A DNA stretch of 64,000 nucleotides from Rikenellaceae bacterium (GCA_015059845.1 SUZR01000011.1:2845-66844); one strand, 5' to 3'. Counted from the first letter of the stretch, positions 23,245 through 57,040 are shown. Translations and numbers: made by a program. Notes: a model not told the origin generated them from the letters alone.

Positions 23245-23276
23245 ATTGTTTATTTACGAAAAGTTTAATACTTTTG
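23245..23276 (+). promoter_or_regulatory. Promoter of candidate rod RNA 1
   Basis: ATTG at 23245-48, 20-nt spacer, exact TACTTTTG at 23269-76; predicted +1 near 23281. Confidence 0.7.
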
Positions 23277-23280
23277 TTAA

Positions 23281-23554
23281 AGTAATCGAATAGGTTACAG
23301 ACATACAGAAAGTGTTTTCGCAGTCTTTACAAGAAAATGTGGAAGTTTTCAAAGAGAGAAGGCAGACGAATAGCACTCATCTCTTGTATATGTATGGGAA
23401 CGTTGGCACGGCTTGTGTCGATGCCTCACGCTATACAGGTGTGGGGCATTGTATCGTTTATTCTCTCAAGGTCTTTCCACAACCTTCTTGTAAATAAACG
23501 GGAATCATCTCCACACTTTCTATTTATAATAATCTGCCGCATAGGAGATATTAC
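23281..23554 (+). ncRNA. Candidate rod-shaped structured RNA, copy 1 (unassigned family)
   Basis: Nested complementary blocks AGAAAGTGT/ACACTTTCT, TTTACAAGAA/TTCTTGTAAA, TGTGGAAG/TTTCCACA, GAGAGAA/TTCTCTC, AGACGA/TCGTTT; own promoter; homologous to 56770-57029. Confidence 0.75.
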
Positions 23555-23572
23555 GGCAAAACAATTATTACA

Positions 23573-24409
23573 ATGAAAAGATTAGTCATATTAGGAGTTG
23601 CGGTGTGTATGCTCGTTGCCTGCAAACAGACAAATAACATCCCTACGCACATCACCGAGGAGAATTACCTCAAGGCCGACAGCGCACTATGGGCGGAGTT
23701 TGAGCGCGACACCGAACCGATAATTGAGCAGATGGATGCCGAGCCTGAGCGCTTTGATGTCCTATATGAACTGTATAAATCTATCGAGGAGGCCACCGAT
23801 AAACGAAACTACGAACTTGCAATAGAGTATGCAGCTGTGCCGAGCGGATTAAGAAGAGTCTTTACTGTACGAAACCAGCTGAGTAAAGAGCAGATGCAAA
23901 AAACGCTCTCGGAGATTCCCGATTCAATGCAACAATCATTTTACGGCAAGCTCATCAAAGAGTATATCGAGGCCGACCAGATTGAGGAGGGAGATATGTA
24001 TCAGCCCTTTGAGTGTATGTGTGAGGATGGCCAGCCATTCGATTGGTCGCGCTTAGACGGAAAAAAGACACTATTGTGCTACGGCGGATTGGGCTGTATG
24101 GGTGATGTGGGGCGCGAGTTGTTAAAGAAGTGGAACGAGCAGTACGCGAGTAAAGATTTCCAAATCGTAATCTATGCCCCCGAAGTTGATAATTACGAGG
24201 AGCTTGTAGAGGATAAGAAGTATTGGCGCGATAATGGGGTGACAGATTACATAGCCATTGCCGATTTCTTGGGTGATGCCAGCCCCATAAGGATTATATA
24301 CAGCTCGCAGGCTAAGCCCACGTGCTTTATGATTGATAGCCAGGGTCGCGTGGTTATTAAGTCAATGGGACTTGCCCCCGAGCGTATGGAGGCCTTCTTA
24401 GCGCAATAA
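23573..24409 (+). CDS. Lipoprotein with a TlpA/thioredoxin-like domain lacking CxxC
   Basis: Lipobox LVAC; FECMCEDG..FDWSRLDGKKTLL; PTCFMIDSQGRVV; active-site region reads YGGLGCMGD. Confidence 0.7.
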   Translation: MKRLVILGVAVCMLVACKQTNNIPTHITEENYLKADSALWAEFERDTEPIIEQMDAEPERFDVLYELYKSIEEATDKRNYELAIEYAAVPSGLRRVFTVRNQLSKEQMQKTLSEIPDSMQQSFYGKLIKEYIEADQIEEGDMYQPFECMCEDGQPFDWSRLDGKKTLLCYGGLGCMGDVGRELLKKWNEQYASKDFQIVIYAPEVDNYEELVEDKKYWRDNGVTDYIAIADFLGDASPIRIIYSSQAKPTCFMIDSQGRVVIKSMGLAPERMEAFLAQ

Positions 24410-30392: not shown

Positions 30393-30464
30393 GCTGAATT
30401 AGCTCAGTGGTAGAGCACTTCACTCGTAATGAAGGGGTCCCGAGTTCAAGTCTCGGATTCAGCT
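30393..30464 (+). tRNA. tRNA-Thr(CGT), CCA not encoded
   Basis: GCTGAAT/ATTCAGC acceptor, D-arm GCTC-AGTGGTA-GAGC, anticodon arm CTTCA-CTCGTAA-TGAAG, T-arm CCGAG-TTCAAGT-CTCGG. Confidence 0.97.
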
Positions 30465-41685: not shown

Positions 41686-41887
41686 AAATATTTTAAGTTA
41701 ATAAAAGTTACGCTGTGGAGCAGAACCATAAATTAACTCAAAACATCCTTTTGCCGTAGAGCCAATGCCAACGGGGCAGCGGCGCAGTTGTTCGCCTGAG
41801 GCGGAACAAAAACTTATATTTTACGGATAAAATTAGTTTTGACTTGTCCCGTAGTCCTGCAGGTCACAAATCTTGTTTAACGCAAAA

Positions 41888-42100
41888 GGTAGGTCTTCTG
41901 ACTTGTTCCATTTGTGACGCCTTCCCAACGCCGCAGCGTCAGTGGCAAAGAGTGTCACAAACTAACTTCGTTTATCGGGCGGTGCATCAGGCATTTTCAG
42001 CCAATCGCCCCGAAGTGGAACTCACAGCAACAGGTATTGTTCCGGATTCTCACCGGATTCCCTATTATTCTCGGTGGCCGAGGGCCACACGGGAACCGTT
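41888..42100 (-). promoter_or_regulatory. Cobalamin riboswitch
   Basis: Minus strand AATAGGGAATCCGGTGAGAATCCGGAACAATACC..GCTGTGA..GCCACTG..GGGAAGG..AAGTCAGAAGACCTACC; upstream of the btu operon. Confidence 0.95.
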
Positions 42101-42109
42101 TGCTTAGTG

Positions 42110-42117
42110 CAAAGATA
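42110..42117 (-). promoter_or_regulatory. -7 box of the B12 operon
   Basis: TATCTTTG on the minus strand just upstream of the aptamer. Confidence 0.7.
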
Positions 42118-56018: not shown

Positions 56019-56582
56019 ATGAAAAGACTATTAATTTATCTTTGTGCGGTGTCAATTTTGGCATCTTGCATCAAGCTGCCGGATATAGATGTCTCCGGGG
56101 AATCGCAGGAGGCTAAAGCGGCCTTACTGGCCCAGTTCTCATCTGCGAATATTAAAAATTGGGATAGCCGATTAGGTTATGTTGTTGTTAATTTTACGCT
56201 TGATGTCGAAAATGATACACCCGCCAATTGCGTAGCGTGGTACGACAGAAACGGTAAGTGGTATCTTACCGAGAGCAGTATGAAGTACCAGGAGCTCCCC
56301 GCGGCTGTCACAGCAGCCTTCGAGGGTGGCGACTTCAAAGATTGTAATATCGAAGAGGTCTATTGCCTTGATGCTCCCGAGTTCACAGAGTACGCTATGC
56401 TTATCACTGGTAAGATTTACGGCTATGCGCAGAGAGGTTTTCTCTACTACAAGGAGAACGGCACGTTGCACATAAGCATCGTAAATCCTCGCTCAGATTA
56501 CACCTACGGAGATTATCTGTTGGCTCCGATTTGTAAAAAGGGCGACGGCAGTAATACCGACAGCACCCCGCTTGAGAATTAA
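56019..56582 (+). CDS. Lipoprotein with a PepSY-like (beta-lactamase-inhibitor-like) domain
   Basis: Lipobox LASC; AWYDRNGKWYLTE..ELPAAVTAAF pattern. Confidence 0.7.
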   Translation: MKRLLIYLCAVSILASCIKLPDIDVSGESQEAKAALLAQFSSANIKNWDSRLGYVVVNFTLDVENDTPANCVAWYDRNGKWYLTESSMKYQELPAAVTAAFEGGDFKDCNIEEVYCLDAPEFTEYAMLITGKIYGYAQRGFLYYKENGTLHISIVNPRSDYTYGDYLLAPICKKGDGSNTDSTPLEN

Positions 56583-56769: not shown

Positions 56770-57029
56770 ATCGCGGCCCGAGCGATATCATTAAAACCTA
56801 AAACATAACCCATATAAACAGAAAAGTGCGAGCCTGTTTCTATCCAACGGTAGGCCTTCGACTGCCTTATGGTAGATATAACGACTCACACTTTGGCGGT
56901 ATATGTCTTTAGAACATAATACATACCAAAATGAGCGCTCGTCATTCCCTACCATAATGAGTTGTCGAAGTTCACCGTTGAGGAAGAAAAAACGCTTTCC
57001 AATAAATATGTCTGCCGCGCACTGCGACT
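56770..57029 (-). ncRNA. Candidate rod-shaped structured RNA, copy 2 (same family as 23281-23554)
   Basis: Nested blocks CAACGGT/ACCGTTG, CTTCGAC/GTCGAAG, TTATGGTAG/CTACCATAA, ATGACGA/TCGTTAT; own -7 box; four sequence blocks shared with copy 1. Confidence 0.75.
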
Positions 57030-57032
57030 ATA

Positions 57033-57040
57033 CAAAGGTA
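57033..57040 (-). promoter_or_regulatory. -7 box of candidate rod RNA 2
   Basis: TACCTTTG on the minus strand just downstream of the rplQ terminator; no clear -33 TTTG. Confidence 0.6.

Follow-up and report, generated by a model that had tools for sequence, protein, structure and literature searches.

The 64,000-nucleotide (nt) stretch of Rikenellaceae bacterium DNA analysed here (GCA_015059845.1 SUZR01000011.1:2845-66844; the window) contains two copies of an RNA element for which folding and comparative modelling show two conserved, mutually exclusive predicted folds: a long rod, which is the ground state, and an alternative hairpin that is formed by the 3′ arm on its own and leads into a U-rich tract. 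We consider it about an even bet that this element is a conditional terminator (attenuator). The whole analysis is based on computation on sequence. An initial annotation had flagged 92 nt of this DNA (23437-23528, + strand), corresponding to the back half of the copy 1 RNA, as part of a two-state switch, but it recognised neither the mRNA leader role of copy 1 nor the third, covarying partner that the CUCC motif of its 3′ arm has further downstream.

Two folds in one RNA

At full length, both RNAs are predicted to fold as long rods (copy 1, -76 kcal/mol, z -4.9; copy 2, -75.5 kcal/mol, z -5.6). In copy 1, which lies on the + strand, folds and alignment delimit a 5′ arm at 23308-23384, followed by a variable apical hairpin at 23385-23436 (-17.8 kcal/mol when folded alone) and by the 3′ arm at 23437-23518. 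The rod is closed by helix R1, in which GAAAGUGU (23308-23315, GAAAGTGT in DNA letters) pairs with ACACUUUC (ACACTTTC, 23513-23520). A middle helix joins TGTGGAA (23338-23344) to TTCCACA (23475-23481), and helix R7 occupies the AGTGT inside 23437-23446. The 5′ arm also holds a local hairpin, in which GAAAAT (23333-23338) faces GTTTTC (23345-23350).

The 3′ arm of copy 1 can instead pair with itself through three stems: A1, of 10 base pairs (bp), between AGGTGTGGGG (23437-23446) and CTCCACACTT (23509-23518); A2, of 8 bp, between CGTTTATT (23455-23462) and AATAAACG (23493-23500); and A3, between AAGGT (23468-23472) and ACCTT (23482-23486). Its loop, CTTTCCACA (23473-23481), contains the TTCCACA strand of the middle rod helix, and the U-rich tract TCTATTTATA occupies 23519-23528 (tail TCTATTTAT from 23519). 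Together, R1 and R7 use both strands of A1, so that hairpin and rod exclude each other. In copy 2, on the - strand, the corresponding hairpin (56823-56894) consists of AAAGTGTGAGTC (56894-56883) with GGCTCGCACTTT (56834-56823), TATCTAC (56878-56872) with GTTGGATA (56848-56841) and AGGC (56867-56864) with GCCT (56855-56852); its loop is AGTCGAAG, and the U-rich tail TCTGTTTAT lies at 56814-56822. Every stem named in the initial annotation was found in both copies exactly where it had been placed, and the isolated 3′ arms fold exactly as it had described, into a shared second fold that is incompatible with the rod, ends at the U-rich tract and displays the variable middle-helix strand in its loop.

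The two arms differ in their ability to fold alone. When compared with 200 dinucleotide shuffles, the isolated 3′ arm of copy 1 (23437-23528) reaches -25.0 kcal/mol with a z-score of -5.14, and that of copy 2 (56896-56813, - strand) reaches -28.5 kcal/mol with a z-score of -3.94; in both cases, none of the 200 shuffles was as good. Isolated 5′ arms, on the other hand, are no better than shuffles (z -1.15 for copy 1, and -0.78 and -0.70). The same asymmetry appears across 46 members of the family, in which the 3′ arm has a mean z-score of -4.7, with 98% of the values below -2, and the 5′ arm a mean of -1.9.

Conservation of the two folds

Both copies belong to a single multi-copy RNA family found in Rikenellaceae/Alistipes, from which we extracted a set of 168 members out of 170 near-full-length matches. 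Pairing in the main family was evaluated in a MAFFT alignment of 144 non-redundant members, with column shuffles and slid partners as null models for covariation. The predicted rod is strongly supported by covariation: its cells are paired in 96.9% of cases, compared with 87.7% in shuffled columns and 36-49% with slid partners, and it presents 478 double-change cells, compared with 141 in the shuffles. Single columns of helix var1/var1′ contain as many as four types of Watson-Crick pair, and the middle helix switches in blocks, as in UGUGGAA/UUCCACA vs UCUGACA/UGUCAGA. In 10 orthologs of copy 2, the rod has 19 double-change cells against the 7.9 expected from shuffling, and none of 500 shuffles was as high.

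The alternative hairpin is paired in 97.8% of its cells, compared with 35-64% with slid partners, but because its stems are nearly invariant, this figure barely exceeds the 97.4% of column shuffles. The variation that it does show is almost all one-sided and compatible with G·U pairs. A hairpin within the 5′ arm gives values of 97.7% paired, 96.7% shuffled and 39-51% slid, with 19 double-change cells (4.1 in shuffles). Covariation of both folds in homologs had been proposed at the outset as a check on the switch; what we observe is that the rod covaries and that the pairing of the hairpin is kept (also at 96% in the copy-2 orthologs), although almost without covariation.

The best comparative support for the hairpin is the contrast between the two subfamilies. 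From the main family to copy 2, stem 1 shows changes of G-C to A-U and of G-C to U·G, stem 2 differs in sequence, and AGGU/ACCU is replaced by AGGC/GCCU. A covariance model built from the main-family hairpins alone detects the full length of every one of the 10 copy-2-type arms, and copy 2 aligned to this model has zero non-canonical pairs. In addition, although AGGU/ACCU and a UUAU/AUAA core are internal loops in the main-family rod, their two strands complement each other within a single arm. The initial annotation had proposed such complementarity between rod internal loops in both copies, which agrees with our results for these main-family segments but not for the TATCTAC of copy 2, which is paired in the predicted rod.

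One could argue that the hairpin is a by-product of dyad symmetry, given that the motif AGUGU/ACACU is present twice in the rod, in R1 and R7, and that this repetition makes some same-arm complementarity (A1, B1) arise automatically. This explanation is weakened by the fact that both arms would then be expected to be self-complementary, whereas only the 3′ arm is. The asymmetry between the arms, together with the complementarity of the internal loops, provides moderate evidence that the 3′ hairpin itself is under selection.

Position in front of genes and pairing beyond the U-rich tract

We took as downstream genes all co-oriented open reading frames (ORFs) of at least 60 amino acids that start within 250 nt. 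Such an ORF follows 135 of the 168 members, and the position of its ATG peaks at 50-58 nt past CACUUUC. Among the 127 close-coupled members, that is, those with a gene within 120 nt, only 3 present a promoter box between the U-rich tract and the ATG, and in copy 1 there is no TAnnTTTG box in this interval; thus, the downstream gene would depend on transcription through the U-rich tract. As judged from this arrangement, the members of the main family, copy 1 included, are 5′ leaders of co-oriented mRNAs.

The genes served by these leaders are diverse. In copy 1, the gene (23573-24409, + strand) encodes a lipoprotein-like protein of 278 amino acids whose match to Redoxin is weak and below threshold. 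In the rest of the family, 42 of the 135 downstream genes encode DUF4988/collagen/BspA-LRR lipoproteins, and others encode a BACON lipoprotein, an outer-membrane beta-barrel and a PD-(D/E)XK protein. A hydrophobic N-terminus was found in 91 of the 135 proteins, and the predicted product is usually a surface or exported protein.

Just 5′ of ACACUUUC, within a one-sided rod bulge of about 9 nt, there is a 7-mer, N3CUCC, that is complementary to the GGAGN3 loop of a small hairpin located 20-27 nt past CACUUUC. In copy 1, the bulge motif AUCUCC (23507-23512, ATCTCC in the DNA), which is unpaired in the rod and overlaps the 3′ strand of A1, could pair with the GGAGAU loop (23544-23549) of a hairpin with the stem TGCCG...CGGCA (23535-23558, + strand). 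The complementarity is complete (7/7) in 117 of the 168 members and at least 6/7 in 148. When the partner is swapped for that of another member, only 37% ± 2.4% match 7/7, and 0 of 500 permutations reached the observed 70%. At least six complementary triplet types are used (CAA-UUG, CAU-AUG, CAG-CUG, CGG-CCG, CGA-UCG and AGG-UCU). Since the loop lies beyond the U-rich tract, this covariation suggests that read-through transcripts are under selection.

This pairing also competes with the alternative hairpin, as CUCC is unable to pair with the GGGG of A1 and with GGAG simultaneously. Moreover, GAAAGUGU and GGAGUUG, when placed side by side, resemble the A1 strand AAGUGUGGGG. This composite resemblance suggests that the 3′ segment chooses between an internal partner, on the one hand, and the 5′ end of the RNA plus the downstream loop, on the other. 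The loop of the downstream hairpin, U(A/U)GGAG(U/A)UG, is located around 25-30 nt before the start codon throughout the 168 members, and its GGAG is too distant from this codon for a normal Shine-Dalgarno role.

Energetics and folding route

Of the two helices that can adjoin the U-rich tract, A1 is the more stable, with -13.9 kcal/mol in copy 1 and -16.0 in copy 2, vs -8.2 and -5.0, respectively, for R1. Considering the whole RNA, forcing the hairpin costs 12.7 kcal/mol on average, out of around 85; in copy 1, the hairpin-forced structure reaches -68.5 kcal/mol vs -79.7 for the rod. The hairpin state is a deep minimum, placed just 9-13 kcal/mol above the rod out of about 80. A direct-path estimate of the barrier from the hairpin state to the rod is around 27 kcal/mol, so that either fold would be long-lived once formed. 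Co-transcriptional folding was judged by a crude home-made elongation heuristic, the results of which are indicative but not decisive; with a limit of 6 kcal/mol per step, it ends in a trapped non-rod fold.

In three members (L113, L145 and L149), the two strands of the middle helix belong to different classes and are mismatched, and the hairpin is the predicted ground state (P 0.86-0.95). These members look like recombinants and could be naturally "off-locked" copies. Apart from the two main folds, the invariant GUGUGGGG has a third possible pairing partner in copy 1, the apex 3′ strand, with which it gives a local hairpin (GAUGCCUCAC with GUGUGGGGCAUUG, followed by UAUCGUUUAU; 23419-23451, + strand). 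A simple terminator scan flags this hairpin, and RNAalifold picks its family version, CCCCAU/GUGGGG. If it forms, it may represent an intermediate in folding or a site at which transcription pauses or stops early.

A proposed conditional terminator and its alternatives

We infer that transcription would end at the U-rich tract when the hairpin forms, that the rod would let the polymerase through and that some factor would control the choice between them. An RNA of about 240 nt would start from its own Bacteroidota promoter and, by default, the 3′ arm would zip onto the 5′ arm that has already emerged. The rod would thereby swap a terminator stem of -14 kcal/mol for a closing helix of only -8, and because this weak helix is set apart by the 9-nt bulge, RNA polymerase would be expected to read on. 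The N3CUCC of the bulge could then dock on the GGAGN3 loop, locking the rod form and perhaps tuning translation or stability. If, on the contrary, the 5′ arm were withheld, be it by a protein, by a second RNA or through a change in elongation or pausing, the 3′ arm would fold alone, transcription would stop at the U-rich tract and the RNA of about 240 nt would be released. As in known attenuators, the element stands between promoter and gene in copy 1 and in 124 of the 127 close-coupled members, though not in copy 2; it has a stable hairpin directly before a U-rich tract; and it presents a conserved pairing that excludes this terminator.

Several observations weigh against a switch of this kind. 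The 3′ hairpin has just 12 double-change cells among the 144 members (2.8 ± 1.5 in shuffles) and zero in the 10 copy-2 orthologs, in 6 of which one pair of stem 2 is broken. Its stems are made of the most conserved blocks of the element, and their conservation could have another cause. At equilibrium, stem A1 of copy 1 is calculated to form with a probability of only about 1e-8, and the elongation heuristic yields the rod once it may take steps of 9 kcal/mol or more. The closing helix of the rod likewise adjoins the U-rich tract and might terminate transcription by itself. In addition, copy 2 carries the same two folds but has nothing to regulate, and we found no sensor or trigger, a leader peptide having been ruled out.

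It is possible, though in our view unlikely, that the rod alone has a function, for instance as a stabilising 5′ structure or one that binds a protein, and that the hairpin is a by-product of repeated conserved blocks. All of the strong covariation falls in helices that are exclusive to the rod, the near-invariant stems of the hairpin hardly differ from shuffled columns, and the rod is 9-13 kcal/mol more stable. Furthermore, the repetition within the rod of AGUGU/ACACU and of CG-centred motifs accounts for part of the complementarity, since the R1/R7 motif creates that of A1 and B1. Such a by-product does not easily explain why only the 3′ arm is self-complementary, why the letters of the rod internal loops are complementary and are replaced in copy 2 by others that are also complementary (AGGC/GCCU, UAUCU/GGAUA), or why the hairpin always ends exactly at the U-rich tract.

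Somewhat less likely again, in our view, is a 3′ hairpin that terminates constitutively, or that forms only transiently during folding, with no switch involved, the product being a stable rod-shaped small RNA (sRNA) with a fixed trickle of read-through. Copy 2, with its hairpin and U-rich tract but no downstream gene, would fit such a role, as would the conservation of the U-rich tract, the presence of a helix next to it in both folds and the lack of a trigger. Nevertheless, it would be surprising for a plain terminator to precede a gene within 120 nt in 127 members, with another promoter box in only 3 of them, and it would have no need for covarying rod helices. The covariation between N3CUCC and GGAGN3 also argues for selection on transcripts that read through.

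A third possibility, which we regard as improbable, is that the rod is a substrate for the processing of double-stranded RNA (by RNase III, for instance) and that the 3′ arm, freed by cleavage, refolds into the U-tailed hairpin and acts as an sRNA, with CUUUCCACA or its variants in the loop as the seed. The rod is indeed a long, near-continuous duplex, the lone 3′ arm resembles a classical sRNA with a terminator hairpin, and the loop holds the variable middle-helix strand. However, the loop classes do not track gene families, and complementary sites in the genome are not above chance-level 14-mers. The suggestion in the initial annotation that the variable loops provide locus specificity fares no better, as every class of middle helix precedes both DUF4988-type and unrelated genes.

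An even more doubtful proposal is that paralogous leaders pair in trans through the barcodes that var1, the middle helix and var2 provide in the rod, each of which comes in a handful of types only. A released leader or arm would capture a nascent 5′ arm with matching barcodes at another locus and force the terminator hairpin to form there.

Finally, we give next to no credence to the idea that the element is a mobile repeat similar to miniature inverted-repeat transposable elements, of the ERIC or Correia type, whose palindrome comes from transposition and whose RNA folds without regulatory meaning: although it is multi-copy, variable in copy number, placed before unrelated genes, present in four copies on IMG/VR viral contigs and subject to re-assortment of var1/var2 modules between paralogs of one genome, its distances to promoter and start codon are fixed, its 70-80% identical copies keep their pairing through compensatory changes, the downstream loop covaries with the bulge, and neither terminal inverted repeats nor target duplications came to our notice.

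Distribution and layout of the family

The family is not included in Rfam 15. When both loci were compared with its models at E-values of up to 10, only terminator-driven or chance matches outside the rod appeared, and at the Rfam gathering thresholds, the whole window yields just a cobalamin riboswitch (41871-42115, - strand, 74.5 bits) and a tRNA (30393-30464, + strand, 71.4 bits). Our literature searches likewise found no description of this RNA. According to a whole-genome profile search, the source genome carries exactly 3 copies, 2 in the window and 1 on another contig. When the same genome was searched for an antisense or complementary partner, just chance-level 14-15-mers appeared, and the profile gave no further matches. 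In one sample of relatives, comprising 36 genomes of the same genus and 24 that belong to other families within the order, matches to copy 1 occur in 33 of the former, with 1-12 in each, and in only 1 of the latter; some of the matches are of half length. An exact-pattern scan of species genomes agrees with this distribution, as the matches listed come overwhelmingly from Alistipes, Tidjanibacter and Rikenellaceae metagenome-assembled genomes. Four full-length members, with 216-224 bits, were also found on IMG/VR contigs classed as viral (L273-L276). A search for solo 3′ hairpins serving as terminators in 327 kb of related DNA found none, only full elements and their reverse-strand echoes.

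Members share a common layout that consists of a -7 promoter box, a small 5′ hairpin, a rod of around 100 bp and the U-rich tract, for an RNA of around 240 nt. An exact TAnnTTTG box is located 27-45 nt before the conserved GAAAGUG in approximately 160 of the 168 members; in copy 1, it reads TACTTTTG (23269-23276, + strand). The small 5′ hairpin, which in the minimum free energy fold of copy 1 occupies 23283-23297 (+ strand) and is followed by the conserved CAGACATA, differs among members in the letters of its stem, while its pairing is kept in the alignments. In 164 of the 168 members, T accounts for 5 or more of the 9 nt that follow CACTTTC. Copies are only 70-80% identical and retain their pairing via many compensatory changes. 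In one genome with eight copies (G020; L026, L053, L054, L056, L059, L064, L066 and L067), the variable helices belong to a small number of discrete types, which are combined differently from one paralog to the next; the var1 type TAATCG, for instance, is found with two different var2 types. Whatever the combination, each type comes with the partner strand that matches it, a pattern suggestive of nested block exchange among the copies.

A protein-coding or leader-peptide function was considered and rejected, because in relatives the ORF opened by the conserved AUG runs for anything between 1 and 82 amino acids, in shifting frames. The analogy with type I toxin-antitoxin RNAs, which the initial annotation had raised, is also unsupported in the absence of a conserved ORF. 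The 79-codon frame of copy 1 (23337-23576, + strand), which begins at this AUG in the 5′ loop, crosses the whole leader, and its stop codon overlaps the start codon of the next gene in the sequence ATGA; this frame, which is not kept in relatives, is probably accidental.

Copy 2 and its orthologs

The RNA of copy 2 (56812-57028, - strand) begins with a small 5′ hairpin (57028-57014), followed by the rod, and its -7 box, TACCTTTG (57033-57040, - strand), lies just past the terminator of the upstream gene, which we read as rplQ from its sequence. There is no co-oriented gene behind its U-rich tail, the next gene (56019-56582) being convergent. It is by far the most divergent member of the family, with 71 bits vs 150-285 for the others. 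Orthologs were sought through a search with the protein that we read as RplQ and were found downstream of the corresponding gene in 9 of 80 Alistipes loci; stem 2 of their alternative hairpin is reduced to 5 bp. Copy 2 is most likely a divergent orphan with both folds, in which the hairpin just ends a stand-alone RNA.

Comparison with known systems

The closest parallels to the conditional terminator that we favour are terminator attenuators and riboswitch platforms such as those of the trp type (1:2 / 2:3 / 3:4). Both have a promoter-proximal leader with mutually exclusive folds and a terminator hairpin followed by a U-rich tract, the 5′ strand of which can pair upstream instead, and in both, the terminated leader would be freed as a small RNA. 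In contrast to the trp type, the present family pairs 1:4 and 2:3 into a rod of around 100 bp, so that even in the "on" state the terminator has its 3′ strand paired. It has no leader peptide, aptamer or known protein site, it is portable and multi-copy and stands before unrelated genes, and its additional bulge-loop pairing reaches past the U-rich tract. Thus, the working principle would be that of terminator/antiterminator leaders, while the design differs in its 1:4 plus 2:3 rod, its lack of a recognisable sensor, its portability and its docking helix beyond the terminator.

Other systems resemble the family in single aspects. Viroid rods are circular, replicating RNAs that are not encoded in genomes and that form metastable hairpins, such as hairpin II of potato spindle tuber viroid (PSTVd). 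They share with our element an unbranched stable rod whose conserved blocks re-pair into hairpins across a large barrier, a similarity of mechanism only. 6S RNA is also rod-like, with a length of around 200 nt, and a hairpin forms in its 3′ half once the 5′ strand is withdrawn. However, neither copy matches its model at E-values of up to 10, the rod has small internal loops only, with no central bubble, genomes contain up to 12 matches, and most copies of the family are mRNA leaders; the parallel with 6S RNA, suggested by the mention of pRNA in the initial annotation, is therefore not supported. In Bacteroides, the NusG-like protein UpxY acts in antitermination within the long 5′ untranslated regions of capsule operons, where upxY is the first gene of the operon and the leader is operon-specific. 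The similarity here lies in surface-structure genes of Bacteroidales that need read-through of a long leader, but in our survey of downstream genes, no upxY-like gene was found behind the leaders of the family. Of the paralogous sRNAs FopS and GibS of Bacteroides, FopS is a short RNA in which a 5′ seed that remains single-stranded is combined with one terminator hairpin; it acts in trans on susC mRNAs and was deposited in Rfam (PMC11697453). Like our element, FopS and GibS constitute a multi-copy family of non-coding RNAs of Bacteroidales with canonical Bacteroidota promoters (PMC11697453). The two cannot be equated, as the present family is a rod of around 240 nt that stands in cis before genes and has no match in Rfam.

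Significance

Alistipes and its relatives are abundant gut bacteria in which almost no RNA regulation has been characterised. In these organisms, one portable promoter-plus-leader module heads many genes for putative surface proteins, including DUF4988/collagen/BspA-LRR and BACON lipoproteins and outer-membrane barrels, as well as some nuclease-type accessory genes. If this module does gate transcription, it would represent a widespread control device of a new design, in which the whole leader is the antiterminator and a bulge reaches past the terminator, and it could serve as a compact switch module for the engineering of Bacteroidales. In the far less probable case that leaders also pair in trans, surface genes that share barcodes would be expressed in a mutually exclusive or a coordinated manner, which would amount to an RNA-based choice for surface variation. 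The trigger of the switch could be a new RNA-binding regulator, in a phylum that has been described as lacking Hfq, ProQ and CsrA.

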